Shown here: in pieces, positions 13,022 through 61,158 of the stretch
How positions within the stretch are numbered: the stretch's first letter is position 1
Layout: each line of letters begins with the position of its first letter
Source: a virus
Lineage: Duplodnaviria > Caudoviricetes
Strand: one strand, 5' to 3'
IMG/VR virus record: IMGVR_UViG_3300020440_000010
Location: 1-64,000 of that record
DNA length: 64,000 bases
Program-made: the position numbers and the translations under genes
Notes under the pieces: generated by a model
Seen by the model: only the letters and a program-made list of their open reading frames with translations
What the model was told of the DNA's origin: nothing
Databases searched by the model: none

Positions 13022-13697
13022 TAAATGGCAAACACCTTTCTATGTTGGTGAAGTTAAAGACCACGCGAAAGTTGTGGATGCTTTCATGCCATTTATTTTA
13101 AAAGAAAAGGATTACTTTCATGCACCTTGGACGTTAGCAAATTGTTTATCAAGTTGTCATCATGAACTTAACGCACAGATGCCGTGGGATATATGGTGGG
13201 ACGCAGTATCGCCAAACTTTGCAGAATACCTAAACAGTCTAGAACCTGTTGCAGACTATGAAATTAAATTATTAGACAGTTGGTGTAATATTTACAAGGA
13301 AGGCGGTTTCCAAGAAATACACGATCATTCTGCACCTAAGAATAATTTCAGTTGCAGTTACTTTTTTGAATATCCAGACGATACTGTTACTGGCGGCGAA
13401 CTTATATTGGAAAATACAAAGTTCACAGATATTACTGCTACCGGACTAGAAAACAAATTTAAAAGTTTCAATCAAAAATGTTTTATACCTAATGTAAAGA
13501 GCGGAATCATAGTAATATTTCCTAGTTGGATAAAACACTTTACTAGTCCTAACAAAAGTAAAAAACGAAGAACAACGTTTAGTGCTAATGTTGAAATAGA
13601 AACTAGGTTTACTCCAGAACAGATGCAAAAGTTTCCTATACAAGGTAGTGTGGGCGACTTTAATTTTAACTATCTAGGAGAAAATGATGCTAACTGA
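13008..13697 (+). CDS. Putative 2OG-Fe(II) oxygenase (TIGR02466-like)
   Basis: WCNIY..GGFQEIHDH, FSCSYF, IFPSWIKH, RTTFSAN. Confidence 0.8.
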   Translation: MTTYNKWQTPFYVGEVKDHAKVVDAFMPFILKEKDYFHAPWTLANCLSSCHHELNAQMPWDIWWDAVSPNFAEYLNSLEPVADYEIKLLDSWCNIYKEGGFQEIHDHSAPKNNFSCSYFFEYPDDTVTGGELILENTKFTDITATGLENKFKSFNQKCFIPNVKSGIIVIFPSWIKHFTSPNKSKKRRTTFSANVEIETRFTPEQMQKFPIQGSVGDFNFNYLGENDAN

Positions 13698-14319
13698 AGC
13701 AACACCCTGGCCTAGTATTATACACAAGGCACACTATGATGGTGACCTTAGCAAAATTGTAAGCAAGGTAAGAGCAGAACACATAAACGTACAACCTAAC
13801 ATAGGTGTAATGCAAGGTGGCGGCAAAACTAGTGTACGCAATCAAAAGACTCCGCCTCATACTTGGCAAGAAACTGTTGACCTAATGGAATGGTTTAAAC
13901 CTATCGTAGCAGAGTTGTGGAGCAAGTTTGAATATACAGAAGCAACTTTATCAATATTAAAAAGTTGGACAAACATACAACGTAACAAAGCATACGTAGA
14001 AGAACATGATCATGGTGGTTGTCATTTCGCAGTAAGTATGTATTTAGAAAAGCCTGAGGGCAGTGGTAACATACAATTTAGAAATATGAATTTACCTTTA
14101 CAAAACAACACACCTAAGAAATGGAAACAAGCAGGTATTAATGATTACTTTACAGAAGTAGAAGCAGTGACAGGAGATGCACTTATATTTCCTGGTTGGT
14201 TAAGTCACAGGGTACCACCTAATCCTACAGACCAAGAACGTATTGTTTTAAGTTTTAACATACATGGAATATGTGAAGGATCACCAACTTTAATTGGAAC
14301 GGCAAAAGAGGATGTATGA
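13684..14319 (+). CDS. Putative 2OG-Fe(II) oxygenase (TIGR02466-like)
   Basis: SWTN..EEHDH, P.GSGNIQF, FPGWLSHRV, RIVLSFN. Confidence 0.8.
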   Translation: MMLTEATPWPSIIHKAHYDGDLSKIVSKVRAEHINVQPNIGVMQGGGKTSVRNQKTPPHTWQETVDLMEWFKPIVAELWSKFEYTEATLSILKSWTNIQRNKAYVEEHDHGGCHFAVSMYLEKPEGSGNIQFRNMNLPLQNNTPKKWKQAGINDYFTEVEAVTGDALIFPGWLSHRVPPNPTDQERIVLSFNIHGICEGSPTLIGTAKEDV

Positions 14320-14834
14320 TAACCAAAAAAGAATTTTCAAAAGTGTTAACAAACCCAGAGTGGTTTATTCAAGGATCAATTTATACAATCATTGATGGTA
14401 AAGATGCTAGAGTAAATGAAACTTATAAATCCTACACAGATTACATAAGCAATTTGCCTACACTTATAGAAAACAAAACAGTCTTTAAAATACAAGACCT
14501 TGAAAAGTTTAACAGTGGCATTGTAAAAAAATGTTCACAGTTATTTGATGTATGGAAAAAGCCTGTGAACTGTCATGCCTATTGGGGTTATGCTGATACA
14601 ACAAGTTTCGATAAACACACAGACCCCTGTGAAGTTTGCATTTACATCTGTGAAGGTAATAAGCAAATAGATTTAGATCAACAACAGAGTATATTACGCG
14701 AAGGACAACACTTGTACATTAAAGCAAATCAGCCACACGCCGCTCGAAATATTACAGATTGTTTAAGCCTAAGTTTTGGCACTGAAGACTTTTCAGAAAG
14801 TTATTGTACTACAGGAATGGATATAAGTTTATGA
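14316..14834 (+). CDS. Cupin/JmjC-like oxygenase
   Basis: NCHAY...SFDKHTDPCEV...EG.K...LYI...PHAA. Confidence 0.7.
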   Translation: MITKKEFSKVLTNPEWFIQGSIYTIIDGKDARVNETYKSYTDYISNLPTLIENKTVFKIQDLEKFNSGIVKKCSQLFDVWKKPVNCHAYWGYADTTSFDKHTDPCEVCIYICEGNKQIDLDQQQSILREGQHLYIKANQPHAARNITDCLSLSFGTEDFSESYCTTGMDISL

Positions 14835-15910
14835 AAGATCTAATGATATATCTTAAGACTACAGAAACCTGTAATCTAAATTGTGCCCATTGTTTTACTA
14901 GTGGTATAAATGGACGTAAGATATATTTTGATACAGATAAAATTATTGATTGGTTCAAACGAATGAAAGAAGTGTTTCCTAGTTTTAGATCAGCACACAT
15001 AGACTTTCATGGTGGTGAACCTTTCCTTGCACCTATTAAAGATATGCAAAAAGTTTATGATGAAGTAAGCACACTTTATCCTGAAATGAGTTGGGGAACT
15101 ACAACTAATCTTGTGTATAAACTTACCGATGAAAAATTAAATTTTATGCGAACTGCATTAAACAAACGTGTAGGTACAAGTTGGGATCCTAAGATTAGAT
15201 TTGCTAATGACAAACAAAAAGAACTTTGGGAGAATAACGTTAGAACTTTAATTGCAGACGGATTTACAATAAAACTATTTGTAAGTATGAGTCGTGATGT
15301 AACTAACACAGACCCAAAAGAAATATTAGACTATGCAATAGGATTAGGAATACAAGAAATAGATTTTGAAAGGATTACACTAGATGGAAATGCCACAAAG
15401 AATTTAGCACTATGGCCTAGCAACAAAGAATTAGATGCTTGGTTTTTAGAGTATCACGAAGTAATTAAAAAGTACGATATGCGGGAAAAGATATATAATA
15501 CCTTTATGGAAAACATTTATGCCAAATTTGAACTAGGATTTCCTGATGCAGGAACATGGTGTAGAAACTGTGAGCAGAAGATGTTTACCTTAAATGCAGA
15601 TGGTACAATCGCAGGCTGTCCAAATTCAGCACCTAATGATCACTATGGGCATATAGATATGCCAATATATGAACTACTATTAAGTCCAAAAAGACGTAAT
15701 ATAATCGCCTGTGAAACTGCTAGAGACCCTAGATGCTTTGAATGTCCAGTATTTGACGTATGTGGCAGTGACTGTCACCAACTAGAATGGGAAGGTGATG
15801 TGTGTGCGTCGCCAAAAACACTCATGATGAAACTGAAAGATGATATAAATACACATACATTAAACAAAAAAGCGAAGTTTAACGAGAGATTATTAAAGGT
15901 ACATAACTGA
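14831..15910 (+). CDS. Radical SAM/SPASM protein 1
   Basis: CNLNCAHC, FHGGEP, and C-terminal CRNC..GTIAGCP..CFECPVFDVCGSDC..C; start moved to MKDLMIY. Confidence 0.92.
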   Translation: MKDLMIYLKTTETCNLNCAHCFTSGINGRKIYFDTDKIIDWFKRMKEVFPSFRSAHIDFHGGEPFLAPIKDMQKVYDEVSTLYPEMSWGTTTNLVYKLTDEKLNFMRTALNKRVGTSWDPKIRFANDKQKELWENNVRTLIADGFTIKLFVSMSRDVTNTDPKEILDYAIGLGIQEIDFERITLDGNATKNLALWPSNKELDAWFLEYHEVIKKYDMREKIYNTFMENIYAKFELGFPDAGTWCRNCEQKMFTLNADGTIAGCPNSAPNDHYGHIDMPIYELLLSPKRRNIIACETARDPRCFECPVFDVCGSDCHQLEWEGDVCASPKTLMMKLKDDINTHTLNKKAKFNERLLKVHN

Positions 15911-16467
15911 TGGCAACACTAACAAATCCAATTAGAAAGCAGAATCTAGTAGATAGATTCGCTGATTTTGTGGCTAATCACAACAATAGCCAAATTGTAT
16001 GGGGAACAAACAGTAAACCATTTTCACAGATGCCTGACAGTGAATTTACAGGTTCAACAGCAGGTAGATCAATAGGCATCACAGGTGCAAGTATTACAGG
16101 GGATACCATTGATTCAAGCAATATGATCTCTGCATTAGAAGGTGAAGCATATCAATATACAAGAATACGTAAGATGAGAGCAAGGCTGTTGATGCAGACG
16201 TCGGGCACAGGTGAAGCAAATCCAAGAGTAGATTTCAATCAAACACAAGTTGCTTATTTGGCCGCGGCCAGAAGACTAACACTTGATGGTATCAATGCTT
16301 CGACTGTTGAAGAAGATGATCTAGTAAGTGTTACTGGTCTTGAAACTTATTTTGCAGACCTACAAAGAGAAATGAACGAGAAGAGGGATACAACATATAA
16401 CAAGGACGTAACAATCTGTCACAGCAGTTGTCACAGTAATTGTCATGCTTCAAGAGGCAGAAGATAA
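15910..16467 (+). CDS. Candidate radical-SAM substrate: 185-aa protein ending in a Cys-His repeat (CHSSCHSNCHASRGRR)
   Basis: Coupled to rSAM1 by TGATG; the only Cys and most His residues sit in the C-terminal (CHxx)3 repeat at 16417-16452. Confidence 0.7.
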   Translation: MATLTNPIRKQNLVDRFADFVANHNNSQIVWGTNSKPFSQMPDSEFTGSTAGRSIGITGASITGDTIDSSNMISALEGEAYQYTRIRKMRARLLMQTSGTGEANPRVDFNQTQVAYLAAARRLTLDGINASTVEEDDLVSVTGLETYFADLQREMNEKRDTTYNKDVTICHSSCHSNCHASRGRR

Positions 16468-17201
16468 TGCAGAAAACCACAATCGCTCCTATTCCGTTAG
16501 AAGATCTAAAAGAATATTTTGCTAACAAAGAATTAACATTTTTAATAGATTACGAAAACAGTACACTTAAAGGTGAAAAGTTTCTAACTTATCTTAGCAA
16601 CCTAGATGTACCATGTGATGTAGTGCTTGGTAAGGACAAAGATAGTATACTAGAACTTGTTGAAGTGTATATGAATACTAGAATGCTTGTGAAATTACCC
16701 ACTTTAGAAATTATTGTGTTACAGATCCTAATGGCTAGCAAAGAAATAGATAATGGTTTGTACTATGACAATAAAATATTTTCTTTTGATGAATTAAAGC
16801 AGTTTGTCAAAGATAACAGTGAACTTGTAAACAAGTGGTTAGTTGGTTTAGTGAGTGGCTCACTGTTTAATATACATTGTATCAATGACGACAAGATCAA
16901 AGAATCACTTGATGATTTTGAAAAGGTAGAGGATGATCAATTTTGCGGTATCAACTATGCTAACCTTTACAAATATGAAGAATTATATGAAATATTTCCT
17001 ATGGTATCAATGGAAGATAGAAAGTTTTTAGTAAAACAGTTTACAGAACCTATGTTTAAAGGCGAATCTTTATACAATTATTGGTTCGTTCCTGGTAATG
17101 TAGTCGCTTTAATTACGGAAGCAGTCAGTGTCGGAGCATGGGATAAAGATAAATATTTAAAAGCAAAGGAAGAGAGCGTCAAAAATGTACCTACTGTTTG
17201 A
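16467..17201 (+). CDS. Hypothetical protein in the rSAM cluster
   Basis: Start moved to MQKTTIAP (TAATG overlap). Confidence 0.75.
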   Translation: MQKTTIAPIPLEDLKEYFANKELTFLIDYENSTLKGEKFLTYLSNLDVPCDVVLGKDKDSILELVEVYMNTRMLVKLPTLEIIVLQILMASKEIDNGLYYDNKIFSFDELKQFVKDNSELVNKWLVGLVSGSLFNIHCINDDKIKESLDDFEKVEDDQFCGINYANLYKYEELYEIFPMVSMEDRKFLVKQFTEPMFKGESLYNYWFVPGNVVALITEAVSVGAWDKDKYLKAKEESVKNVPTV

Positions 17202-18276
17202 TAGAGTTTATGTAAAACCAATGTATATGCTGGACATGGAACGTCCACGTGTTATTATTTCGCCTGATGCTTCATCTGAACTATTAGACGGCATTGAAAC
17301 CAAGTTTAGAAACTTAGGTGAAATGTTTTACAATGTCGACGGATACAATCAATTAGTGGGTGGCGAAGGTGAATTCGCAGATGACAAAGAGTTTTTCAAT
17401 TGGTTGCTTGACAAAGGTAGAGTTGATGTGTTTGTTGACAGCAACGCATATCATAAAATATTTGTTAAGTGGATTAAAATTATGTATCCTGATATACAAA
17501 AAGAACTTGCTTGGAAAATATATTCATTAGTGTCTACGCATACTAGACTTACTGTAAGATCAATGTTTACTTGGGGTACAGATAACGAAGGTGTTGATGC
17601 ACAAAAAACTCAAGCAAATGAATTTAAATGGCTTACACAAGATCAATTCCAAGGTTTATTTAAAACAGTACAGGTAGTAAAAGACAATGCGTTAGTGGGT
17701 AGAGTAAGAGCAAAAGCACCTATGGAATTTATTGTGGCTGGTAAGTTAAATGGTAAAACTACTTATGATGAGGCTTTAAAACAAAAAATGTATGCAATAG
17801 GTATTAAAAAAGTAAGAGATGAAATGAATCACGTTAAAAATCATTTACTACATAATATTAATAAAGCATGGGTACAAAAATTAGTTGGAGTTTCATACAC
17901 TGCTGGTGATGATCTTTTTGCACTTAAAGGCACAAATGCCAAAATTGATTTTCTATTAGACGAAATGTCTGAAGATGCATTATCAACTCATGATGTAGAC
18001 ATAGCAGATTTAAGAGAAGGTGCTCTTACTGAAGCAGGTGCACCAGATGGAGATTCAGATATTGGATTACCAACTTGGTTTATTAAAGCATTACAGAGTT
18101 CTTCAGGATCTATAGATTCAGCAACACTTGATAAAATTATTGAGTTTGAAGTGAACAATGTTATCAGTTTATTTGAAGTAGATGATAGAGCAAAAGTAAA
18201 TGTGATGTTATTAAATTACTTTTATAATCTTAAAAATAACAACACAGACGAATTAGCACACTATTCAATAGGCTAA
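17185..18276 (+). CDS. Hypothetical protein in the rSAM cluster
   Basis: 363-aa ORF overlapping the preceding gene. Confidence 0.75.
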   Translation: MYLLFDRVYVKPMYMLDMERPRVIISPDASSELLDGIETKFRNLGEMFYNVDGYNQLVGGEGEFADDKEFFNWLLDKGRVDVFVDSNAYHKIFVKWIKIMYPDIQKELAWKIYSLVSTHTRLTVRSMFTWGTDNEGVDAQKTQANEFKWLTQDQFQGLFKTVQVVKDNALVGRVRAKAPMEFIVAGKLNGKTTYDEALKQKMYAIGIKKVRDEMNHVKNHLLHNINKAWVQKLVGVSYTAGDDLFALKGTNAKIDFLLDEMSEDALSTHDVDIADLREGALTEAGAPDGDSDIGLPTWFIKALQSSSGSIDSATLDKIIEFEVNNVISLFEVDDRAKVNVMLLNYFYNLKNNNTDELAHYSIG

Positions 18277-18307
18277 TACACTTTTCAACAACCCCATAAA
18301 TATCTAT

Positions 18308-18865
18308 ATGATAGAAAAACACTGGGCAACACCTATCTATTCTCATCAGTATAATGATGACGATGATTGGAATCACAAATTAGACATTTTGCTAAAAGCC
18401 AAAATGACTGATATGAAATCAGAAGGGCATACTAATATTGCTGATGTCAATGTTAGTTTCAAACCATTTCCTGATATCATGGATAGATTCAAAACTGCGT
18501 TTGATGAACTTTGTGATGTGTATGAACACCCAAAAAATTATAATATAACTGATCTAAATATAATCAATCCTATGAATTTTGGAGATTACAAAAGCGTTCA
18601 CTCACATGATAAGATTGATGCTTTTGGAATTTTCTATGTTGATGTGGGTACAGAAACATCAGGCGGACATTTAAAATTATATGATCCTAGATGGCAGAAT
18701 CAAAAATCATTTGTAGGATCCAAACCATACATGGAAATAGTTCCCAAGAAAGGATTGCTAATTGCCGCTCCTCATTATGTTTGGCACGAAGTCACTCCGT
18801 ATGTTGGGGACTTGACAAGATTAAGTTTAGTGTGTAATATGCAGTTTAACGAAATAGTAGAATGA
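18308..18865 (+). CDS. Putative 2OG-Fe(II) oxygenase (TIGR02466-like)
   Basis: SVHSHD, GGHLKLYDPR, PHYVWHEV, RLSLVCN. Confidence 0.78.
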   Translation: MIEKHWATPIYSHQYNDDDDWNHKLDILLKAKMTDMKSEGHTNIADVNVSFKPFPDIMDRFKTAFDELCDVYEHPKNYNITDLNIINPMNFGDYKSVHSHDKIDAFGIFYVDVGTETSGGHLKLYDPRWQNQKSFVGSKPYMEIVPKKGLLIAAPHYVWHEVTPYVGDLTRLSLVCNMQFNEIVE

Positions 18866-19863
18866 TAGAACACAACATTATTACAAAAACTAACAAACGA
18901 AGTATCCTTGGCGAGATCATTGTGACTCTGTTTGAGCAGTGTAATATGAGTTGTAAATTTTGTAATCAAGATCATAACAGCAAAGTAGGAATGGATACTA
19001 TCAAAGACAAGTTACCGGTAGTAAAACGTGCAATAGAAAACATGAGCAAAACTAGAGAAATGTTTAGTGTGCATTTTATGGGCGGTGAAGTGTTTAGTGA
19101 TTTAGTACCTGACAGTTGTTTTGATGATTACAAATATCTAGCAGACGAACTAGAAGCATGGAGTAAAGAAAACAACTACGATGTAGAAATATGCTTTACT
19201 ACAAACTTTGTATATGAACAAACACATAGACTACAAAAACTACTAGACCAATGTCCACAGGTAAAATTGTTAACCAGTTACGATCCTAGTGGACGTTTTG
19301 GCCTAGGTCAATTAAATGTATTTAAAAAGAATGTAATAGCATTTGAAAAGTATATTAAGAGTGCAAATGTAATAATGACTAAACCTAATATAGATAAGTT
19401 CTTAAAAGGCAATACACCTTTCTTTGATTATCTCTATGATAGGTATGACATTTATTTTGATTATTACACACCAGAAAAGAATAGAAAGTTGATGACTCCT
19501 AATGATGTTCAATTGCGTGACTTTATGATTTATATGTTTGACAACTATCCTAACTGTTTGCCATTCAAAGATTATCCTAGTAAAATTAAAAAACGTATGA
19601 CTTGCCAAGATACATTTACAATAATGCCAAGTGGCGATGCAGGCGGCTGTACTATTTTGTTATCACAAGATTTATCAGGGTACAAACCAACCAAAGAAGA
19701 AATGGAACAAAAATGGTTTGACGATTATAATTGTTTAGAATGTCCACACTTTCAGAGATGTTCAATGGGTTGTTTTTTAAGCAATCATCTAAAAAGTTTT
19801 AGAACACAGGAAGTGTGTTGGTTATCGGAGGTTTACGATTATGTTGATTCAAAAGAAGTTTGA
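18862..19863 (+). CDS. Radical SAM/SPASM protein 2
   Basis: CNMSCKFC, FMGGE, and C-terminal CQ..GGC..CLECPHFQRCSMGC..C. Confidence 0.9.
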   Translation: MIEHNIITKTNKRSILGEIIVTLFEQCNMSCKFCNQDHNSKVGMDTIKDKLPVVKRAIENMSKTREMFSVHFMGGEVFSDLVPDSCFDDYKYLADELEAWSKENNYDVEICFTTNFVYEQTHRLQKLLDQCPQVKLLTSYDPSGRFGLGQLNVFKKNVIAFEKYIKSANVIMTKPNIDKFLKGNTPFFDYLYDRYDIYFDYYTPEKNRKLMTPNDVQLRDFMIYMFDNYPNCLPFKDYPSKIKKRMTCQDTFTIMPSGDAGGCTILLSQDLSGYKPTKEEMEQKWFDDYNCLECPHFQRCSMGCFLSNHLKSFRTQEVCWLSEVYDYVDSKEV

Positions 19864-20494
19864 TGCTAATAATTTTTACAAGCATGGTTTTGATGTTGTT
19901 GAAATGCCAAAACAATTATCTACTTTACTGTGGGCACAGATATCTTTAGAAGATTGGAACCCCCACGGAGTATATAAAAATGTTCCGTCATGGAGCATGA
20001 ATAATGATATGGTAGTGGGTAGTGTTGACAGAAAGTATGATAGAAACAAAGAACAAGAAATGTGTAAAGAAAGTTTAGATAGAGTTCCGCTTATATACAA
20101 AGATACACTTACTGCTCTTTTTAACGAAGAATATTATAGAAACTGGTTTGTAAAAACTTGTGGGTACAATTGGGAAATGCGTTTTATTGATTTATGGAAT
20201 GGCAGTGACAGTTTAGACTGGCATTGGGACGGAGTAGAAGACCATGACATTGGATTTTTAATTTACTTTACAGAAGAGCCTACATGGAACGAAGAGTGGG
20301 GAAGTGTGTTGAAAGTAGGAGAAAGAGATTGGCCAGATACTAATGTACAAAATGTTAGGAAAATTATTCCTTTAAATGGAACGGTGGTATTACTAAACAA
20401 CATGAATCCTAGATTTGTTCATAGTGTAGATACACTGGTTGACACAACTAAAAATAGATATACAATAAATTGTGGAATAAGTTTATGGAATTAA
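19841..20494 (+). CDS. 2OG-Fe(II) oxygenase
   Basis: LDWHWDG, LIYF..W.EEWG.VL, FVHSV, RYTI. Confidence 0.82.
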   Translation: MLIQKKFDANNFYKHGFDVVEMPKQLSTLLWAQISLEDWNPHGVYKNVPSWSMNNDMVVGSVDRKYDRNKEQEMCKESLDRVPLIYKDTLTALFNEEYYRNWFVKTCGYNWEMRFIDLWNGSDSLDWHWDGVEDHDIGFLIYFTEEPTWNEEWGSVLKVGERDWPDTNVQNVRKIIPLNGTVVLLNNMNPRFVHSVDTLVDTTKNRYTINCGISLWN

Positions 20495-21105
20495 ATGTAG
20501 ATAAATTTTGGACAGACGGGTATGATGTAACTACTCTTGATGATGAAAAGTATTCAATGTTGTGGAGTTTGATACACAATGAGACTTGGGTAGATGGTAT
20601 ATTTCCTATTCAAAAGGTTGCTAGTTGGAGTAATACTACAAAAGAAAATTTAAAAGATAGAGTAGAAGATATATCCCCTAATTTAACAATGTGGAATGTG
20701 CCTGTAGAATACGATCAAATAATGAACGATATATGGAAAAGCGATTACTATCAAAAATTCTTTAGAGACTATGCTAAAAAAGTAGGAAAGATAGAATATA
20801 TTGATGTGTGGAATAAAACACCAGCACATGAATGGCACAGTCATACTCCTGATAATGTAGATTTAGTATTGTTAGTTTATCTAAATGAACAAGAGCAATG
20901 GAAACGTGAATGGGGCGGAGTACTGCAAGTAGGTACGAAAACAATTGAAACCAACGAAGTAGGAAACGTACATTCTATTTTGCCAAACAATAAAACAGTA
21001 GTGCTTATCAATAATATCAACCCAAGAATTTTTCATAGTGTTACAGAACAAATATCTGAAAACAATAGATATACAATTGGAGCAGGAATTAAGTTATGGA
21101 ACTAA
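20485..21105 (+). CDS. 2OG-Fe(II) oxygenase, paralogue of 19841..20494
   Basis: HEWHSH, LVYLN..W.REWGGVL, IFHSV, RYTI. Confidence 0.8.
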   Translation: MELNVDKFWTDGYDVTTLDDEKYSMLWSLIHNETWVDGIFPIQKVASWSNTTKENLKDRVEDISPNLTMWNVPVEYDQIMNDIWKSDYYQKFFRDYAKKVGKIEYIDVWNKTPAHEWHSHTPDNVDLVLLVYLNEQEQWKREWGGVLQVGTKTIETNEVGNVHSILPNNKTVVLINNINPRIFHSVTEQISENNRYTIGAGIKLWN

Positions 21106-22202
21106 TTATAAAACCCACAGAATTGTGCAACTTTAAATGTACCTTTTGTTCTAGTACAAAGATTGCAGAGCATGGTAAAGTAGTTTTAGACCATGAACAC
21201 ATTTTTAGATTCTTAAAAAGATATCCTAATACAAATACAATTATTGTTAATGGTGGTGACCCGTTGATGATGGATCCTGATTACTATTGGAAAATTATAG
21301 ACTATCTTGACGAACACGAGATGTCAACAAGTATTGCGTTGACTACTAACCTTTGGCCTTTTTACAAGAAGCCTAGCAAATGGAAAGCATTGTTCAACAA
21401 TGAAAGGATAGGCGTTACAACCAGTTTCAATTACGGTGATGGTAGATTAAAAGGAGACTTTAGTTTATTCACAGTAGAAGACTTTTGGCGTGTAAGTGAT
21501 GCTATGTTAGAACACTGTAACTATCGACCAGACTTTATTGCAGTTGTTACAGACAGCAATGATCACCTTGCTATGAAAAATGTAGAACTTGCTGTTGAAA
21601 TGAGTGACGGCGTAGAACCCGGCGGTACATTACATAACTTTGCTCGTAACAATAAAACTGGTGTTGAATGCAAATTAAATTATGCAATGAGCAGTGGAGA
21701 ACAAGATAGACCATATCTACTATCCAAGATTTACAAAACTTATGTAGATATATGGGAAGCAGGATTGGCTCCATGGGAGTTCAATACAAAACAAATGATG
21801 AAGCGTTTGAAAGGAAACGCTACCTCTTGTCCACAGAACAGACGCTGTGACGAAGGAATTAGAAGTATGAATCCTGGCGGAGACTATTATAGTTGTGGTG
21901 CATTTGGTGATGATATGGAGAAACCAATAGATTTTGAAAAAGAAATGAATGGGGATTTCTTTACACCATTACAGGATAGTTTTGAACTTGCAAGTATGAA
22001 AAAATCATGTTATACTTGTCCTATGTTTGAAATATGCAATGGTTGTAGAAAAACAGTTAAGGATTTCAAAAGACACAAAGTTGTTGAAGCACACTGTAAA
22101 ATAATGAAGACTGTTGCACCCAAAATACTAAAAGCAAACGGTTTGGAGGGAGTAGAAGTTACTCCGTATGTAAATGAAACTATTGAAACAAGACAAGCCT
22201 AA
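21096..22202 (+). CDS. Radical SAM/SPASM protein 3
   Basis: CNFKCTFC, NGGDP, and C-terminal CPQNRRC..YYSCG..CYTCPMFEICNGC..C. Confidence 0.92.
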   Translation: MELIIKPTELCNFKCTFCSSTKIAEHGKVVLDHEHIFRFLKRYPNTNTIIVNGGDPLMMDPDYYWKIIDYLDEHEMSTSIALTTNLWPFYKKPSKWKALFNNERIGVTTSFNYGDGRLKGDFSLFTVEDFWRVSDAMLEHCNYRPDFIAVVTDSNDHLAMKNVELAVEMSDGVEPGGTLHNFARNNKTGVECKLNYAMSSGEQDRPYLLSKIYKTYVDIWEAGLAPWEFNTKQMMKRLKGNATSCPQNRRCDEGIRSMNPGGDYYSCGAFGDDMEKPIDFEKEMNGDFFTPLQDSFELASMKKSCYTCPMFEICNGCRKTVKDFKRHKVVEAHCKIMKTVAPKILKANGLEGVEVTPYVNETIETRQA

Positions 22203-22926
22203 TATTAGAAGTTATTATGGTGATGGATATGATATTGTAGATGTTGATCTAAGTGTGATTGATCATCTTGGTTCTTATATACTACAGGAAAATTTTAGTG
22301 ACAGTCCTCTACATCCAGGTATATCACAACCGGATTGGGACGCAGACTATACTAATATTACCAAAGAGTTTTATGAAGCACAACAAAAGTATATTGATAT
22401 ACTTAAACCTTTGGTTGAAAAAGAAAACTATTTTGATTACTGGCGTACATTACGAGGACCATTTGATGAACTTATTGTAAGCATCAACAAAATGGATAAA
22501 GGTAGTAAGATGGATTGGCATTGGGACGGTTTTGATGGTAGTATGTTACAATTGATGTTGTATGTAAACTTAGAAGAAAGAACACGAGAAGATGGAGGAT
22601 TTTTAGAAGTAGGTGTATCGTATGAACCTATGATAAACCAAGATGATCCTTTCCCACACTGGTCGCCTGAAACAGGCTTAAACAAAGTTACTGGGCACGT
22701 GATGTCTAAGTGCAGTTATGTACCTAAGAATGATAAAGCAATTATATTAAACAATGATAATCCTTTGTATGTTCATAGAGTAACAGAATGCAAAACTGAC
22801 AAACCTAGGTACAGTGTATTATTACAATGCGGATATAAAACACTTTGGGACGGAAACTCACTAAAGAACAACGGTGGACAATATAAAGATCCACGTACAG
22901 GAATGATTACAAAATTAAACCTATGA
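22174..22926 (+). CDS. 2OG-Fe(II) oxygenase
   Basis: MDWHWDG, LYVN..DGGFLEV, YVHRV, RYSV. Confidence 0.8.
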   Translation: MKLLKQDKPNIRSYYGDGYDIVDVDLSVIDHLGSYILQENFSDSPLHPGISQPDWDADYTNITKEFYEAQQKYIDILKPLVEKENYFDYWRTLRGPFDELIVSINKMDKGSKMDWHWDGFDGSMLQLMLYVNLEERTREDGGFLEVGVSYEPMINQDDPFPHWSPETGLNKVTGHVMSKCSYVPKNDKAIILNNDNPLYVHRVTECKTDKPRYSVLLQCGYKTLWDGNSLKNNGGQYKDPRTGMITKLNL

Positions 22927-23483
22927 AGAACAAACAATTTTCAAATGGCAGAATTCACGGATCAAGATTTGAAGAAGCAGTATATCATGACGGATATCTT
23001 GCATTTTCTGTAAGTCCTTTTGATCAAGACTTTGAAAATGAAATAGAGGATGGTGTACTACCTCATGTGAAAGTGTTGACTACTAAAGGCTATTGTCCTA
23101 TCAGCAGTTGTCATGGTCATTACGAACACGGTAAATGGATGCCTTGGTATGTGATGATAGCACTAGGGGACAATGCCGTGAAACAAAAACAAATAATACT
23201 AGATGCAATTAAAAACATACCAGGAATATATACTGAAACAAGAAAGCAAAGTGCTAATGTTATTAATGGTAAAACTGTATTTGACAAAGTTGATCTGGAT
23301 AAAGAATATGAAGAATTGAATAAAATGTTTTTACGCAAAAACACAACTTGGGAATATTTGTATATCAGTTTGTTTCAACACAGAACAATTTACAATAAAA
23401 TTGCAAAACTATTATTTTTTACACACAGTAAAAATAAATTATTTTATGCTTTAGAAAGATTACCAGATGAACATATCAATTAA
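22923..23483 (+). CDS. Hypothetical protein
   Basis: Coupled ORF containing SSCHGH. Confidence 0.7.
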   Translation: MKNKQFSNGRIHGSRFEEAVYHDGYLAFSVSPFDQDFENEIEDGVLPHVKVLTTKGYCPISSCHGHYEHGKWMPWYVMIALGDNAVKQKQIILDAIKNIPGIYTETRKQSANVINGKTVFDKVDLDKEYEELNKMFLRKNTTWEYLYISLFQHRTIYNKIAKLLFFTHSKNKLFYALERLPDEHIN

Positions 23484-24381
23484 TCCTAGTTATTTTTGTA
23501 ATTTTCGTTGTGACTTCTGTTATCTAACGCCCGAGCAACTTGCAGATCAAAAGAAAATAGATTTGCAAAGATTAGATGATATGTTAGCAGAAGTAAAAGA
23601 ACAAGATGATATTCATCATATTGATTTATATGGAGGAGAGATAGGAGCATTAAAGAAAGATTACTTCTATGGTTTACGTGATGTAATAAGAAAATACTAT
23701 GACAAGGACATTAATATAAACACAAACTTTTCTATGCTACACGATGGCTTCTTTGAAAAAGACTTTTACTTGAGTGTAAGTTATGACTTTGAAGCAAGAG
23801 AGAAGCATGAATTAGTATACAAAAACATGATGTTGTCACCAGTGCCTATCGCAGTATTAGTATTGGTATCTCCAACTATTTTACAAAAAGATGTAGATGA
23901 AATGATTAGAATGTTTAACCTTTGTACTCCTGTAAAAAGTGTAGAGTTAAAACCATATAGTATTAATCAAGCCAATGCTCATAATGTAACACACAAAGAC
24001 TTTGAGCAACACGTAATTAAATGGATACAATCAAAAGAAGATATGCAATTTGCATTTATAAACGATTACAAGATACAAGACAGTATTGAAAAAACTTACA
24101 ATGCATTTAGTAACGATCATGTATATATTACTCCTAATGGTAAGTTTGGAGTACTGGAGTTTGACAAAGATGACAAAGAATATTTTTTAGAACTAGACAG
24201 TTATAAAGATTACAAACTATGGGCAGACAAAGAGCCAGACGTTAATTGTAGTGATATCTGTAAGTCATGCAAATACTATGGACACTGCCTAACAGAACAC
24301 TATAGATACGTTAAGGATCTAGACAACGGATGTAACGGATATAAAGGACTATTAGAATTTTATGAAAGACTGGAAAGTTAG
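23467..24381 (+). CDS. Radical SAM/SPASM-like protein 4
   Basis: CNFRCDFC, LYGGE, and C-terminal CSDICKSCKYYGHC..CNGY. Confidence 0.9.
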   Translation: MNISINPSYFCNFRCDFCYLTPEQLADQKKIDLQRLDDMLAEVKEQDDIHHIDLYGGEIGALKKDYFYGLRDVIRKYYDKDININTNFSMLHDGFFEKDFYLSVSYDFEAREKHELVYKNMMLSPVPIAVLVLVSPTILQKDVDEMIRMFNLCTPVKSVELKPYSINQANAHNVTHKDFEQHVIKWIQSKEDMQFAFINDYKIQDSIEKTYNAFSNDHVYITPNGKFGVLEFDKDDKEYFLELDSYKDYKLWADKEPDVNCSDICKSCKYYGHCLTEHYRYVKDLDNGCNGYKGLLEFYERLES

Positions 24382-24769
24382 ACAAGAAATATATCATAGG
24401 TTGAATAGCGATCACTCTGATGATTTAAACAGAGTAGAAATACAAGAGTGTCCTGATAGTCAATTACTTGATTACGCAATCGAATATTTTACCAACGACA
24501 AACTAGGTTGGGTCTATCCTGCTAAGAGTTATGTAGTTGGAATTTGCTATGCACTCTGGTTGACCAAAGACTTTGGAGGCGGGTTCTATGAATATCTAAA
24601 TGATCCTGAATTGCTGTATGGAAATGATCCCTATTTTGTTCCTTATGACAAAGATCAACAAACGTACGATAATATTATCAACAGTGTAGGATTTGGATTC
24701 GATCAACGTCTTGGAGTCATACCTGATATACGCCATTACTATGAAGAGGAGTTTATGCTTAATGATTGA
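24362..24769 (+). CDS. Hypothetical protein in the rSAM cluster
   Basis: Overlaps the rSAM4 stop; SD AGGA upstream region. Confidence 0.7.
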   Translation: MKDWKVRQEIYHRLNSDHSDDLNRVEIQECPDSQLLDYAIEYFTNDKLGWVYPAKSYVVGICYALWLTKDFGGGFYEYLNDPELLYGNDPYFVPYDKDQQTYDNIINSVGFGFDQRLGVIPDIRHYYEEEFMLND

Positions 24770-25367
24770 AACTAAAATAAGCAGTGATGGTGCCAACGAA
24801 GTTTTTATTAAGGCATCTGATCCACAAGCACTAGAGTATAAGTCTATGGTCCTAGCAGTTTGGCCTAACACAAATTTACAAGGATTACAAATGATTAGTT
24901 TTGACAAAACAAAAAACAAAGTCAATCTAACATTTGATGTGTATCCTAGTGAAGAGATCAAAAAAGAATTTGCTGTGGCAGACTATCATCAGTTCTGTGA
25001 TTACTATGCTGTCGAATGTTTTATAGATTTACAATGGCGTGTACTAAAAGTATATGATCAAAATTTACCAATGCACCCTTTACCTAGTTTACCAAAAGGA
25101 AGTAGGATAGATGTATTGAAAAGCGGAGTAGGTGTTTATTATGGTCGCAACGTAGAAGATTATAGAAAAGTTTATTTTCTACATGACGATATTGATTATG
25201 TAAAAGAGTTTTTCAATGATCTACAGTTACCAATTATTGTAAAGAAATACAAGTATGCAATATTTGGTTTGGAGTACAATGTTAAGACAATGAAATTACA
25301 TCACATTTCGTACTATGATATACAGGATAAGGATAATATATATAGTAAGGATAGTTTAAAACAATGA
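24762..25367 (+). CDS. Hypothetical protein
   Basis: Start moved to MIETK, with GAGGAG upstream. Confidence 0.65.
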   Translation: MIETKISSDGANEVFIKASDPQALEYKSMVLAVWPNTNLQGLQMISFDKTKNKVNLTFDVYPSEEIKKEFAVADYHQFCDYYAVECFIDLQWRVLKVYDQNLPMHPLPSLPKGSRIDVLKSGVGVYYGRNVEDYRKVYFLHDDIDYVKEFFNDLQLPIIVKKYKYAIFGLEYNVKTMKLHHISYYDIQDKDNIYSKDSLKQ

Positions 25368-25939
25368 CAACAGCAAATAAAAGAATAGCAGTAGTTGGAG
25401 CACACGGAGTAGGTAAAAATACAGTCTGTATAAAATTGTTGCAAAGAGAAAAGTTTGGACAACGCGGGATCAATGTAACATATATGCCTGAAACTGTGAG
25501 AAGCACAATGTTTATGAATCATGATATACTTGCCAATGAAATAGGCGGCGACATCAACAGTTGTGCCTGGTTGTATCATAGACACTGGAGCCAAATGCTA
25601 GAACATGAATACAGTTGCGAAGTGTTTATTACAAAAAGATTACCATTAGACTATGTTGTATTCAACGAATGTGCATACGTAATGAAGATGTGCAAAGAAA
25701 CACTACCTTTTCAGTATTTAGAATTAGCAGTTGAACAAGCAAAACAGTTTCATGAAGTTTATTTTGTAAGACATAATCCTGATCATGATTTGATTACAGA
25801 TAGCATTAGACAGGGTCCAGCGGCTAGTGAAGAACTTCAACCTTTGTGGGACACAAACTACAAAAGAATAATAGACGAATACGAAGTTCCTGTAATTGAA
25901 GGTACAGCAGGCGAACTACTAGAAAAGATTAAAGTATGA
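25364..25939 (+). CDS. P-loop NTPase/nucleotide-kinase-like (AAA_28/NadR-like)
   Basis: Walker A VVGAHGVGKNT followed by PETVR and KRLPLDY. Confidence 0.7.
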   Translation: MTTANKRIAVVGAHGVGKNTVCIKLLQREKFGQRGINVTYMPETVRSTMFMNHDILANEIGGDINSCAWLYHRHWSQMLEHEYSCEVFITKRLPLDYVVFNECAYVMKMCKETLPFQYLELAVEQAKQFHEVYFVRHNPDHDLITDSIRQGPAASEELQPLWDTNYKRIIDEYEVPVIEGTAGELLEKIKV

Positions 25940-27228
25940 ATATAGTTATTGTTGGAGGCGGCACTGCCGGTTGGCTCACTGCTCTTTCACTACATAAGAA
26001 ACATGATGTAACCTTAATAGAAAGTGAAATACCTACAATAGGAGTAGGTGAAAGCACAACTGACACTGTCATACGTTGGCTAAAGCAACGTGTGGATATG
26101 AAAGAATTTCACACAAAAACAAATAGCACATTTAAATTAGGTGTGCAGTTTGATAATTGGGTAAACAAAAATGAAACTTACTATCATTTGTTTGGTGATG
26201 TAGAAGACAAAGTACCTAATGGAAAATTTAACCAAGTGGTAAGATACTGTTTTCAGAATGGTATAAACTTAGATAATTTAAGTATATTTGACAAATGTAA
26301 AGAAGAAGATATGACTTGGGATAGTGTTGCTACCCATTGGGACAGTGTTGCAGTACCGGCCTATCTAAGACAAAAACTAGAACACAAAATATTAATAGTA
26401 AATGATACAGTCGAAAAGGTCCATTACGAAAACGAGTCTATTACAAAACTACAATTAGTCAATAGTACTGTTGAAGCAGATTTATATATAGACTGTACAG
26501 GATTTCATAGAGTTCTAACTAAAAATACAAATAATAAATGGATTGATTGGAACGCAAAAGGTCAAGTAGATCGTGCCCTAGTATGGCAAATGCCACACAA
26601 AGATACTATACCAACTTTTACTCAAGCAGAAGCATGGGACTATGGTTGGAGATGGAAAATACCTACCACTGATCGACTGGGAAATGGTTACGTGTTTGAC
26701 AGTGACTTTATAAGTGTAGAAGATGCAGAAAAAGAAATTAGAAAAAGAGTTGATTACAAAGGTCCTGTTAGACTTATAGAATTTAATCCCGGAAGGATTG
26801 AACAAGTATATTATAAAAATATAGTAAGTTTAGGATTAAGTTCTCATTTTCTTGAACCACTTGAAGCAACAAACTTTGATTTTTTAGTATATAATTTACA
26901 AAACTTAGATCTTGTTATAGAAGACAAAATAAATGTAGAACAATTTAATAAAAATGCAAACAGACTTGCTGAATCTATTAGAGAATTTGTCAAAATGCAT
27001 TACATAAACAACACAAACAATACTGCATTTTGGAAAGCACAAAACAAAAATCTGTGCGGAAATGCTATTAGGGTTATTGAAAATGCAGAAACCACTAATA
27101 ACCTTGCACCAGGTGGATTATTTACAGATTACAATTGGTACAAAGTTGCTCAAGGTGTTGGCATAAAGAGTAAAAGCAAAAATGATGATGCTGAATTACT
27201 AGCATTATTCCAATTAGCATCCATCTAA
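25936..27228 (+). CDS. Flavin-dependent halogenase 3
   Basis: GGGTAG, GVGEST, STFKLGVQF, WRWKIP, FLEPLEA. Confidence 0.85.
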   Translation: MNIVIVGGGTAGWLTALSLHKKHDVTLIESEIPTIGVGESTTDTVIRWLKQRVDMKEFHTKTNSTFKLGVQFDNWVNKNETYYHLFGDVEDKVPNGKFNQVVRYCFQNGINLDNLSIFDKCKEEDMTWDSVATHWDSVAVPAYLRQKLEHKILIVNDTVEKVHYENESITKLQLVNSTVEADLYIDCTGFHRVLTKNTNNKWIDWNAKGQVDRALVWQMPHKDTIPTFTQAEAWDYGWRWKIPTTDRLGNGYVFDSDFISVEDAEKEIRKRVDYKGPVRLIEFNPGRIEQVYYKNIVSLGLSSHFLEPLEATNFDFLVYNLQNLDLVIEDKINVEQFNKNANRLAESIREFVKMHYINNTNNTAFWKAQNKNLCGNAIRVIENAETTNNLAPGGLFTDYNWYKVAQGVGIKSKSKNDDAELLALFQLASI

Positions 27229-27252
27229 AACAAATACAGATTAAATATTGCT

Positions 27253-27936
27253 ATGTTTAATCCGTTCAAAATAAATCCAAATGCAGATGTGCAAAAAATT
27301 GATTTGCCATACTTCGAAAAATACTATTGGCAAATAGATGACTTCTATACAGATCCAAAAGCAGTTAATACTTTTTTAGATACAGAGTGTGAATACAAAT
27401 TATTCAAGGAAGACGAACCAGGACTAAATGGTGTTAAGTTTGAAGACAAAAGACACGAAGGACATCACAAAGGCCTAGAAGCCGTAACTTTTGCTCTAAT
27501 GGAAGTTTGTAAAGCAAACAAATGTAGAGACGAAGAAGATCTAATTATTACCAATACATTCAAAGTATTAGATCCTGATTGGGGTAAACAATATAAAGAT
27601 AACTGGTGGTGGCCTCATTTAGATTGGGGTTGGACTGCATTGATATATCTCAATGAAGAACCATGTGAAGGAACAAACTTATATCACAAACCAGGTATGC
27701 CCAAAAACGCAGTACATGATGGTATAGATAAACTTATTAGACAAGGAGCCGCAAAACATAATGAATATGTAGATCCTTGGACTACACGGGATAATTGGAT
27801 ACTAGGAGCAAATATTCCTAGCAAATTTAATAGAGCAATAATATTTCCAAGTAAAATATATCACGGTATGGCTATTGAAAGTGATCGTTGGACCAACGAC
27901 ACACGTAGAAATCAAGTAGTATTTTTTGAATATTAA
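27253..27936 (+). CDS. DUF6445-like putative 2OG-Fe(II) oxygenase
   Basis: IDDFY.DP, PHLD..WTALIYLN..GTNLY, FNRAIIFPSKIYHG. Confidence 0.7.
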   Translation: MFNPFKINPNADVQKIDLPYFEKYYWQIDDFYTDPKAVNTFLDTECEYKLFKEDEPGLNGVKFEDKRHEGHHKGLEAVTFALMEVCKANKCRDEEDLIITNTFKVLDPDWGKQYKDNWWWPHLDWGWTALIYLNEEPCEGTNLYHKPGMPKNAVHDGIDKLIRQGAAKHNEYVDPWTTRDNWILGANIPSKFNRAIIFPSKIYHGMAIESDRWTNDTRRNQVVFFEY

Positions 27937-28816: not shown

Positions 28817-28999
28817 TTATCTGTAATATGCTTGTTTCTTTTGGAAGATTCCACCACCAATGTGTGATACCTTCCCGTGTTGGAGAAGTCGTTGGCGACG
28901 CTCCAAGTCAACAAGATCAACAGACTGAGACAGCCAACGTTCTTCGGGGCTGACAGTTGATTTTGCCAAAAGTTTTTTAAAGTAATTAAGAAGTCGCAT
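28817..28999 (-). CDS. DUF3563-like small protein
   Basis: EERWLSQSVDLVDLERRQR resembles DUF3563; SD GGAGG; TAATG overlap. Confidence 0.6.
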   Translation of the reverse strand: MRLLNYFKKLLAKSTVSPEERWLSQSVDLVDLERRQRLLQHGKVSHIGGGIFQKKQAYYR

Positions 29000-29202
29000 T
29001 ATGCTACCTCCTTTGTAGGCTTTGTCCAACCATTTAACTCGCTATGAGTTGGCGCCCTACCATTGTGATCTAACATGAATTGATAAGCATATTGCCAATC
29101 ATTCTTGTATTCAGTTCTGGCCCATGTGTATAGATCGTTACGAAACCTTTTACCGGCTCCGCATTTCATCCAAGACACTAGACCACTTATTAAGTGGTTC
29201 AT
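28999..29202 (-). CDS. Small hypothetical protein
   Basis: SD AGGAG; first gene after the structured leader. Confidence 0.7.
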   Translation of the reverse strand: MNHLISGLVSWMKCGAGKRFRNDLYTWARTEYKNDWQYAYQFMLDHNGRAPTHSELNGWTKPTKEVA

Positions 29203-29790: not shown

Positions 29791-29863
29791 CGTCTTGTTC
29801 ATTGTGTGTTCATCGCCAATATGCTATATACTATTATAATATTAACCTTAACTGGAGATTGCA

Positions 29864-29941
29864 ATGGCTTGGACAAAACCAATCATTACACAAATCTGTG
29901 TTGGCTTAGAAATTAATTCTTATGCCTGTGCAGAAAAATAG
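29864..29941 (+). CDS. pqqA: PQQ precursor peptide PqqA, 25 aa (not in ORF track): MAWTKPIITQICVGLEINSYACAEK
   Basis: W-x-x-P, the ICVG(L/M)E motif and the E-x-x-x-Y core (EINSY) match alphaproteobacterial PqqA (e.g. Methylobacterium MKWAAPIVSEICVGMEVTSYES..); SD GGAG; AT-rich -10-like sequence upstream. Confidence 0.88.
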   Translation: MAWTKPIITQICVGLEINSYACAEK

Positions 29942-29991
29942 TTGACAATTTTGTTATAGATAGTATACTAAAATTGTAATATTATTTTAAC

Positions 29992-30022
29992 GGAGCCAAC
30001 CTTAGGGAAGGCTCCTTTTTTT
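29992..30022 (+). terminator. Intrinsic terminator GGAGCC..GGCTCC plus T7
   Basis: 6-bp GC stem with an inner CC-TTAG-GG helix, followed by 7 T; 50 nt after the pqqA stop. Confidence 0.75.
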
Positions 30023-30037: not shown

Positions 30038-30238
30038 ATGCATAGTACAAAACAATCAATGGACTGGCATATACAAGAAGTTTTAACCTGTGAACTGTTA
30101 CGAGTAGATCCTAATAATGAAATGCTTGAAAAGTTTTTGGGTATGCAAAATCATTTTGGTGCAGAAATGCGTAAAATAAAAAAGTTTTATGAAGAACAAG
30201 GTAAATGGCCGCCTAGAGAGCCTGGGAGTTTATGCTAA
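30038..30238 (+). CDS. Hypothetical protein
   Basis: SD AAGGAG favours ATG 30038 over 30023. Confidence 0.6.
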   Translation: MHSTKQSMDWHIQEVLTCELLRVDPNNEMLEKFLGMQNHFGAEMRKIKKFYEEQGKWPPREPGSLC

Positions 30239-30426
30239 TGAAAACTTATACTTTAGAATTTGTGTTGTTTGGCTGGTTGGCTTATAACATAGCAATAGAA
30301 ATAGTAAGTTGGTTTGAGCCAGAAGATGAACTACAAGCACCTACGCCTGTGGAAATGTCTCCTGCACAGCAAATACTAGAAGGTGGTACTGACTATCCTA
30401 TTACTGAGGAAAACTCCACAAGTTAA
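30232..30426 (+). CDS. Small membrane-anchored hypothetical protein
   Basis: GGGAG SD; N-terminal hydrophobic helix and acidic tail. Confidence 0.55.
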   Translation: MLMKTYTLEFVLFGWLAYNIAIEIVSWFEPEDELQAPTPVEMSPAQQILEGGTDYPITEENSTS

Positions 30427-31226
30427 ATCTGTGGAGTTTCTAAACCGTCAACTAACTTTTTGATGTGTGTCACATAGTCACCTATGTTATGATCAGTAAA
30501 GTTATCTATCTTACCTTTTTTCAACCCACGCCACATACCACGGAATCTGTCTTTGATTCTTTGGTATCCGGTTGGATTACGTTTGTTACCCCAAGTATTT
30601 AGATAATGTTCTGTGCCGTGATGTCGATATCCCATTATCCATAACGGCACTCTACATACTATATCATTATTGTTTACCCATCTGTGATGTGTGATACCAA
30701 GGCTACTTACATATCCTGGCCAACCCACTCTTGGCGAGCCATATGTGTAAAGTTCCTTAGGATCTAGTGTATCTAAATGTAACAAACATCTCGAAGCCAT
30801 TATAGTTGCCATTGCCGCTCCTAATGAGTGTCCACAAAACCAAAGGTCTTTTTTAGCATTTACAGATCTAAATAAATCTTCAGTGATTGATGGCCAAAGT
30901 TCATCTACTTCTGTTTTAAATCCTGCATGGACTCTGCTTACAGTCTCAGCAATTACAGGCAGTGCATTTGCATCTGCTTGAATGTCATTGTATTCTGTTG
31001 GTTGTGTTCCTCTACAAGCAATTACTATATCATTTTTGTTCATGAATCTGTAACTCTGAGCACCTTTGTTATCGTAATACTCAACTGTGGTAAAGCCTAA
31101 CAGTCTTGCTTGTTTGTGTGCTTTATCCTCTTTTAGGTATGATATCATACTCAATTCAGCAAAAAGCAAACTTCTTTCTTCGAAAGATAGTTCTACTATT
31201 GGTTTTTTTAACTTTGCACTATACAT
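30423..31226 (-). CDS. Class 3 lipase (alpha/beta hydrolase)
   Basis: IACRGT, VHAGF, nucleophile elbow CGHSLGAAMA, YTYGSPRVG, NNDIV, C-terminal DH. Confidence 0.88.
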   Translation of the reverse strand: MYSAKLKKPIVELSFEERSLLFAELSMISYLKEDKAHKQARLLGFTTVEYYDNKGAQSYRFMNKNDIVIACRGTQPTEYNDIQADANALPVIAETVSRVHAGFKTEVDELWPSITEDLFRSVNAKKDLWFCGHSLGAAMATIMASRCLLHLDTLDPKELYTYGSPRVGWPGYVSSLGITHHRWVNNNDIVCRVPLWIMGYRHHGTEHYLNTWGNKRNPTGYQRIKDRFRGMWRGLKKGKIDNFTDHNIGDYVTHIKKLVDGLETPQI

Positions 31227-46378: not shown

Positions 46379-46453
46379 AACCCTCCTTGGTTTGTTTTGG
46401 CTAATTTTTTAGACTTTAGTTATCATTTAAATTAAAAAACACGCACTTTATGA

Positions 46454-46484
46454 TTGACATCCAAAACAAATGGTGCTATAAATA
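46454..46484 (+). promoter_or_regulatory. Composite ssrA promoter: TTGACA-N17-(TG)-TATAAA overlapping TATAAATA
   Basis: -35 at 46454-46459; extended -10 and late octamer at 46477-46484. Confidence 0.75.
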
Positions 46485-46489
46485 TAAGT

Positions 46490-46792
46490 GTAATTGTTGA
46501 CAGCATCGTATGTCACAAGAGCAGGACCCCGGGGCGGTACCGGGCAGGTCCACCATAAACACATTGTTTTTTATGGTTAGTAGTGTGTTTATGATGGGCC
46601 TGAAATAGGATCGACTGGCTTGTTAAGGGTGAAAGAGATTACCGGTAAGGTACGACCGAGCATTATATGGGGAGACTCATGCTACTGTCCAAAAACCATA
46701 AATGCAAACGATAATTTTGCATCTGAAGAGTTACGTCTAGCGGCGTAGTTCTACGGGGTTGGCAACTTACCTGGCAACAGAAAAGTTGCACT
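46490..46792 (+). ncRNA. ssrA: Circularly permuted two-piece tmRNA, alphaproteobacterial type; tag ANDNFASEELRLAA
   Basis: T-arm CCCGG-GGCGGTA-CCGGG and 3' CAGGTCC-A-CCA (ends 46555) precede the 5' end GGGCCTG (46596), giving a 7-bp acceptor stem with G3.U70; hairpin intervening segment; tag frame 46704-46748. Outer ends are approximate. Confidence 0.93.
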
Positions 46793-46886
46793 TCTAAATA
46801 CAATATTACAACAAAGCACATAGTAACGGTACAACAGGGCAATTACGCCTAAATAACAAAGAAGCAGACCGTATAGTATTATCTCA

Positions 46887-60508: not shown

Positions 60509-60696
60509 TATTATTCCAAATTATATACGCACATAATATTTAGTGATAATTTGGCAAAAAAATTACTATCTGACTCTTGTAATTTTAAAAAAAAGTATTA
60601 TATTATTAGTATGCAACAATTAAGTTGTATAAATACAAGTGTAAGATGCTTGATAGGTCTTACATTAATAACTTGCTTAATAAGGAGGACAAGAAA

Positions 60697-61149: not shown

Positions 61150-61158
61150 GCAAAAAGA

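Follow-up and report, generated by a model that had tools for sequence, protein, structure and literature searches.

PQQ is made from the glutamate and the tyrosine of the small precursor peptide PqqA, one peptide being spent per PQQ molecule, and the W-x-x-P leader of the peptide is the part expected to bind PqqD. The closest described viral counterpart of the gene studied here comes from Lake Baikal, where PqqA was reported in T4-like phages with Methylophilaceae as predicted hosts (Coutinho et al. 2020, Microbiome 8:163, PMC7678222). In one of these phage populations, VP_266, which was assigned to freshwater Methylophilaceae, PqqA lies next to a viral methanol dehydrogenase (PMC7678222). 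PqqA was listed among viral genes again in 2026 (PMC13188868). The genomic setting of the gene also has a described counterpart, as T4-like phages have PeSLs (promoter-early stem-loops), by which genes in their plastic regions are shuffled (Arbiol 2010, PMC2839356; Comeau 2014, PMC4122927).

Here we describe a pqqA gene in the first 64 kb (hereafter the window) of an 82,572-bp IMG/VR record of viral DNA. As in the Baikal phages, it is a lone precursor gene in an uncultured large phage and can be read as an auxiliary metabolic gene for PQQ-dependent alcohol oxidation. Two differences separate the systems: VP_266 has a methanol dehydrogenase whereas the record studied here has no PQQ enzyme, and the peptide in the window is of the alphaproteobacterial subtype, in a phage with an alphaproteobacterial-type (alpha-type) tmRNA and a 5-aminolevulinate synthase (ALAS). 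The initial annotation of this DNA took pqqA to be undescribed in phages; the two reports above, and the presence of the gene in more than 200 IMG/VR contigs, show otherwise. Phage pqqA is already known, and the case introduces no new principle. What is new is a well-supported alpha-subtype example in a T4-like phage with an alpha-type tmRNA and ALAS, together with candidate hosts that own the PQQ pathway and a PQQ alcohol dehydrogenase. The range of phage pqqA is extended in this way from phages of methylotrophs (Methylophilaceae/OM43) to T4-like phages whose hosts are most likely streamlined marine Alphaproteobacteria.

An unannotated PqqA gene in a T4-like marine phage

The source record is linear, has a GC content of 35.8% and is about 30% complete as estimated by CheckV. 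Its ribonucleotide reductase (RNR) large subunit is 69–71% identical to those of the Pelagibacter myophages Mosig and HTVC008M (Kyanoviridae) and about 66–68% identical to those of T4-like cyanophages, also Kyanoviridae. The record further encodes an RNR small subunit, an endolysin, structural proteins, DNA ligase and ClpX. A megablast search with the 3-kb pqqA neighbourhood returned no match among GenBank phages. T4-like genes lie on both sides of pqqA and their synteny extends across independent contigs, which places a host-derived gene inside a bona fide phage genome and away from any host junction.

The gene occupies positions 29864-29941 (+) and consists of 25 codons and a stop. It encodes the peptide MAWTKPIITQICVGLEINSYACAEK, identical to the translation given in the initial annotation. 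At 25 residues the peptide falls within the size range of the family (about 20-40 aa), and it contains both the N-terminal W-x-x-P leader (W3, P6) and the Glu-X3-Tyr pair (E16, Y20) that supplies the cross-link residues. It scores 37 bits against TIGR02107 (cut-off 20) and 30.3 bits against PF08042 (cut-off 21.1), on a par with cellular copies, which score 34.6-37.2 bits. A degenerate PqqA pattern matched once in the 64-kb window against an expectation of 0.00 (0 matches in 100 shuffles). While adjoining pqqBCDE genes are absent from the 82.6-kb record, this adjacency is not strictly defining for PqqA, as the 2-4 copies in the candidate hosts described below are mostly orphans. We conclude that 29864-29941 holds a real gene for a genuine PqqA, left unannotated in a large T4-like marine myophage.

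The peptide had been assigned to the alphaproteobacterial form, and 75 of the 80 listed bacterial loci of the same subtype are indeed titled Alphaproteobacteria. It departs from most of its viral relatives at position W+7, where the window copy has Q and 67 of 69 alpha-type viral copies (among the matches listed) have E. This position varies elsewhere too, with Q in a second viral copy (L017) and V in several others.

Searches of GenBank phages with the gene itself found no counterpart: tblastn of the 25-aa peptide gave no match, and blastn with distant settings of the 78-nt gene gave chance matches only (E about 8). The cultured pelagimyophages Mosig and HTVC008M and the cyanophage P-SSM2 lack pqqA, and the gene is therefore optional in phages.

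Promoters and hairpin around pqqA

Upstream of the gene we found a candidate sigma-70-like promoter at 29813-29840 (+), with the hexamers TCGCCA and TATAAT 16 nt apart and 10 of 12 consensus positions matched. The two closest relatives, the viral contigs L036 and L074, have a homologous promoter region ahead of their pqqA. A Shine-Dalgarno sequence, GGAG, can be read directly at 29854-29857 (+), 6 nt before the ATG, and its context, TGGAGATT, is kept in the same two contigs. Both elements had been noted previously.

A second promoter sequence, of near-consensus early type (TTGACA, 16 nt, TATACT; 11 of 12 positions), lies at 29942-29969 (+). It begins directly after the pqqA stop codon, ahead of a hairpin, and is part of the downstream unit. 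Its class has 3 matches in the window where 0.24 are expected, and it is conserved in relatives, two of which lack pqqA. The hairpin that follows, at 29992-30022 (+), has the form GGAGCC...GGCTCC with a run of U7, a folding energy of -14.4 kcal/mol and a z-score of -2.2. As 7 of 200 shuffled sequences fold equally well, its stability is moderate; at least 11 related contigs share almost the same hairpin sequence.

The initial annotation described this element as a strong terminator. The hairpin and its U7 are present, but the structure is of moderate stability and follows the second promoter, and the same promoter-plus-hairpin layout occurs, with a different hairpin sequence, in relatives that have no pqqA. 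The hairpin/U7 probably marks where the pqqA transcript ends and also forms the stem-loop part of a PeSL-like cassette.

The promoter and hairpin near pqqA resemble the PeSLs of T4-like phages in several respects. In both, an early promoter and a stem-loop form a composite element beside a small gene of a plastic region, and this gene, here pqqA, is optional, being present or absent among close relatives; the order of elements in the window is promoter, then stem-loop. The resemblance fits the presence/absence pattern of pqqA, and also the beta/gamma-type pqqA that L005 and L010, described below, have in the corresponding place. In the syntenic relatives L256 and L257, which lack the gene, a promoter and a stem-loop with another hairpin sequence precede the same conserved small ORF as in the window, and pqqA therefore behaves as a presence/absence cassette.

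This small ORF, of 66-71 aa across the contigs, lies downstream of the cassette at 30038-30238 (+) and serves as a context marker outside PQQ biology. Its likely start is the second ATG, behind AAAGGAG. Relatives with 66-70% identity are encoded by 17 viral loci, and it has no match in Pfam, NCBIfam or PHROG.

Conservation and selection among viral copies

A degenerate DNA pattern search recovered at least 120 viral contigs, all with an intact PqqA ORF of 23-27 aa. The peptides fall into two types: an alpha type (...VGLEIN[SC]YACAE-x), which includes the window copy, and a beta/gamma type (...IRLGFEVTMY-x3-R). The search pattern forced the Glu and Tyr codons, and we drew two further samples in a way that left the peptide unconstrained. 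The first used the neighbouring small ORF as an anchor. Among 13 contigs with enough upstream DNA, 11 carry pqqA, each with E-x3-Y, and 2 lack the gene. The second used a leader hairpin described below and left out 10 high-GC chance matches and 2 loci too near a contig end; E-x3-Y is kept in 76 of 76 downstream ORFs. The cross-link pair is thus conserved in all 87 copies sampled without peptide constraint. The order pqqA, promoter, hairpin, small ORF is common to 11 independent contigs from other metagenomes.

The nucleotide changes among these copies are mainly synonymous. In the synteny set pS is 0.43 and pN 0.10, and in 69 distinct alpha-type viral copies (among the matches listed) the values are 0.71 and 0.15. 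Codons outside the constraint of the search pattern give a pS of 0.66 and a pN of 0.25. The pN/pS ratios of 0.21-0.38 indicate purifying selection in phages. A sub-threshold gene that gene callers miss is in this sense common in the genomes of marine phages and under selection there.

One viral copy (L004:4742-4820, +) is out of frame beyond its Pro codon because of one additional base. As the near-twin L113 has an intact gene, this is either a sequencing error or a pseudogene.

Many alpha-type viral pqqA genes are preceded, at a distance of 25-48 nt, by a hairpin of about 34 nt that is absent from the window (loci L008-L118 and L268-L355, e.g. L013:4278-4324:-). Among the matches listed, 35 of the 79 viral loci of alpha type have it, compared with 0 of the 38 of beta/gamma type and 1 of 46 low-GC loci from bacteria. 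GCGG and CAACC are invariant in its internal loop. Pairing holds for 91.9% of the alignment cells, compensatory changes occur in 8 of 11 pairs and none of 500 shuffles reaches the observed score. Rfam holds no family for the hairpin and returned none in the pqqA neighbourhood. The relatives L036 and L074 have the leader hairpin and the window copy does not; comparison with them suggests that about 45 nt were deleted between promoter and Shine-Dalgarno sequence in the window copy. We also considered whether the conserved element upstream of the other viral copies was the 3' end of a tmRNA, and rejected this as the element is present where no tmRNA adjoins (L036, L045, L113). A 13.8-kb contig titled Maricaulis sp. 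MAG (L138, NZMJ01000006.1) has the phage-only leader hairpin together with a peptide identical to viral copies; it probably stems from a phage and was binned with a bacterial MAG.

These data bear on whether pqqA could be a neutral passenger, taken up recently from a host and without a role in infection. The gene is missing from 2 of the 13 syntenic relatives and from the cultured pelagimyophages, as such a passenger might be, and the plastic region around it has promoter/stem-loop cassettes prone to shuffling on its flanks. Yet the viral copies, lone and intact in more than 200 contigs, have a pN/pS well below 1, and many carry a structured leader specific to phages and absent from cellular copies. 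This phage-specific leader and the intact, selected state of the copies imply long residence and adaptation in phage genomes, and we regard a passive role as unlikely.

The pattern of conservation also addresses the alternative raised in the initial annotation, that the phage peptide acts as a decoy, binding host PqqD/PqqE without being productively processed and shutting down host PQQ synthesis. A decoy would be served by the W-x-x-P leader, which is intact, and the E-to-Q change in the leader of the window copy is unusual. However, it would need the leader only, and selection reaches further than that: purifying selection, seen against many synonymous changes, preserves E16, Y20 and all of the core and tail (G-L-E-I-N-x-Y-A-C-A), E-x3-Y is invariant in the samples drawn without peptide constraint, and the viral peptides are near-identical to functional host types. 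Nor is there an apparent gain for a phage in a lower host energy supply. Because the residues consumed in PQQ synthesis are conserved, and not the leader alone, this alternative is disfavoured and in our judgement distinctly unlikely.

Lone pqqA and the upstream radical SAM cluster

The absence of pqqB, pqqC, pqqD and pqqE reported for the window extends to the whole 82.6-kb record, which also has no PQQ-dependent dehydrogenase. Nor do the five largest syntenic relatives (33-82 kb) contain any of pqqB, pqqC, pqqD or pqqE, or a PQQ enzyme. In 49 further viral records with pqqA, pqqE is absent throughout; five of them, 39-60 kb in size and 94-100% complete, lack pqqC as well. Taken together, the relatives without pqqB-E and the 49 records without pqqE make a lone pqqA the rule in phages. 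As the window's own record is about 30% complete, pqqB-E of this phage could sit in its missing part.

An operon-like run of about 19 kb at 9222-27936 (+), 2-20 kb upstream of pqqA, encodes three flavin halogenases of the Trp-halogenase family, at least eight 2OG-Fe(II) oxygenases and a cupin. It also encodes three radical SAM proteins with Pfam support (14804-15910, 21096-22202 and 23467-24381) and a fourth that has weak, sub-threshold matches only (18862-19863). The best matches of the radical SAM proteins are peptide maturases, DarE, DynA and PapB among them, all far below cut-off.

A cluster with radical SAM/SPASM proteins resembling peptide maturases, so many oxygenases and three halogenases at this distance might itself turn the PqqA peptide into PQQ or another product. 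Several observations make this very unlikely. Three minus-strand ORFs separate pqqA from the cluster, and pqqA has its own predicted promoter. The first radical SAM protein has no significant similarity to host PqqE (E 0.05), and no PqqD-like protein was found in the record. Five syntenic relatives, most of them with pqqA, have no homologue of the first radical SAM protein in the DNA available, and the five near-complete pqqA phages of 39-60 kb gave no PqqE-like match.

While the record is an uncultivated metagenomic assembly, it is extremely improbable that pqqA reached it as an assembly chimera or by host contamination, because the same gene order recurs in 11 independent contigs from different samples; moreover, pqqA has phage-like neighbours to either side whose order is shared with L036, the GC content does not vary along the DNA, and the surroundings of the cellular copies are different.

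Candidate hosts and cellular PqqA

The record contains a two-piece (permuted) alphaproteobacterial-type tmRNA at 46450-46839 (+) with the tag ANDNFASEELRLAA. In two other pqqA-bearing contigs, L051 and L115, pqqA lies directly downstream of a two-piece alpha-type phage tmRNA. The record also encodes an ALAS on the minus strand, which scores 576.7 bits against TIGR01821 (cut-off 338.6). To our knowledge, 5-aminolevulinate synthase is confined among bacteria to the Alphaproteobacteria. At 59315-62812 the ALAS gene stands back to back with genes for Hsp20, ClpS, an unassigned 179-aa product and a ferredoxin-dependent bilin reductase-like protein, a neighbourhood that looks like a tetrapyrrole module. 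The tmRNA and ALAS point to an alphaproteobacterial host or gene pool. Of the two, the tmRNA is a weak host marker, because an alpha-type tmRNA is also carried by the OM43 phage Melnitz (PMC9004378).

Scanning bacterial genomes with the alpha-subtype pattern returned at least 120 loci. The nearest cellular PqqA peptides among the matches listed share 19-20 of 23 core residues with the phage peptide and come from marine single-cell and metagenome genomes of 1.3-2.0 Mb, with pqqA loci of 27-34% GC; one is titled Pelagibacteraceae TMED13. In the five candidate genomes analysed, pqqE scores above cut-off in every case, and one has a full pqqABCDE operon. This operon (locus L163, SAG AG-896-A16) runs pqqA-B-C-D-E, each gene above its NCBIfam cut-off, and is followed by a pseudoazurin-like gene. 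All five genomes encode one PQQ dehydrogenase of the methanol/ethanol family (TIGR03075, 673.8 bits), and its gene lies some 3 kb away from pqqE next to those of a quinoprotein-associated SoxYZ-like carrier and a cytochrome of the c type. Each of the five has 2-4 copies of pqqA, mostly orphans, which suggests that precursor dosage matters. A search of the literature for work linking PQQ to SAR11 or AEGEAN-169/HIMB59 found none. A streamlined marine alphaproteobacterium of low GC content is the most likely host, and the PqqA subtype may serve as a cheap host-class marker for uncultured phages.

Two cellular forms of the gene can be set beside the phage copy. The orphan pqqA genes of low-GC marine alphaproteobacterial SAGs and MAGs (L139, L214, L168) are of the same family and length, share the 19-20 of 23 core residues and stand alone, away from pqqBCDE, as in the phage. 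They differ in their chromosomal contexts (endonuclease III, cobS, a sodium/solute symporter) and in having neither the phage promoter/stem-loop cassette nor the phage-only leader hairpin. The operon gene, as in L163, is of the same peptide subtype, with identical E-x3-Y core and W-x-x-P leader spacing, but is directly followed by pqqB, C, D and E, none of which accompanies the phage copy in its record.

Proposed role of phage pqqA

We consider it likely that this is a functional phage pqqA which acts as an auxiliary metabolic gene and provides the PQQ pathway of the host with the substrate that it uses up. The same role had been proposed initially, and it fits the data: the Glu and Tyr are always kept, the gene is under purifying selection and the candidate hosts have pqqBCDE and a PQQ alcohol dehydrogenase.

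Under this model, the gene's own sigma-70-like promoter would produce a short pqqA mRNA, whose 3' end probably falls at the hairpin/U7 near 30022. Enzymes of the host would do the rest: PqqD would bind the 25-aa peptide through its W-x-x-P leader, PqqE would form the cross-link between E16 and Y20, and PqqB and PqqC would finish PQQ together with a protease. When the phage shuts down host transcription, the supply of PqqA would be the first to be starved; the phage pqqA mRNA, made at that time, would refill the only stoichiometric input of the pathway, and no other phage gene would be needed. The host's periplasmic PQQ-dependent dehydrogenase of the methanol/ethanol family, and the energy it yields, would thereby be kept running during infection, to the presumed benefit of the phage. 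The gene suggests that these phages keep periplasmic PQQ-dependent alcohol oxidation going as a source of energy.

Counted against substrate supply are the Q at W+7, the missing leader hairpin of the window copy, the lack of pqqA in Mosig, HTVC008M and P-SSM2, and the incompleteness of the record at about 30%.

Two pqqA subtypes in one plastic region

More speculative readings of the locus can be formulated. In one, the radical SAM, 2OG-oxygenase and halogenase set of the phage would turn the PqqA-like peptide into a cofactor or modified peptide of its own; in a milder version, for this lineage of large T4-like phages, the pqqA subtype in one PeSL-flanked slot would be swapped when a phage changes between alphaproteobacterial and OM43-type hosts. 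We give these ideas very little credence. If the swapping were true, the pqqA subtype would mark the host.

Downstream of the small ORF, a class-3 lipase gene (PF01764, 70 bits) lies at 30423-31226 (-), with 47-59% identity to homologues in the phage contigs L005, L010 and L061. Two of these contigs, L005 and L010 (IMG/VR 3300047379_000549 and 3300046655_000311), belong to large related phages and carry a beta/gamma-type pqqA in the opposite orientation. It sits between their homologues of the window's 28999-29202 and of the class-3 lipase, an arrangement that suggests, on comparison of the gene neighbourhoods, swapping of pqqA subtypes within one plastic region.
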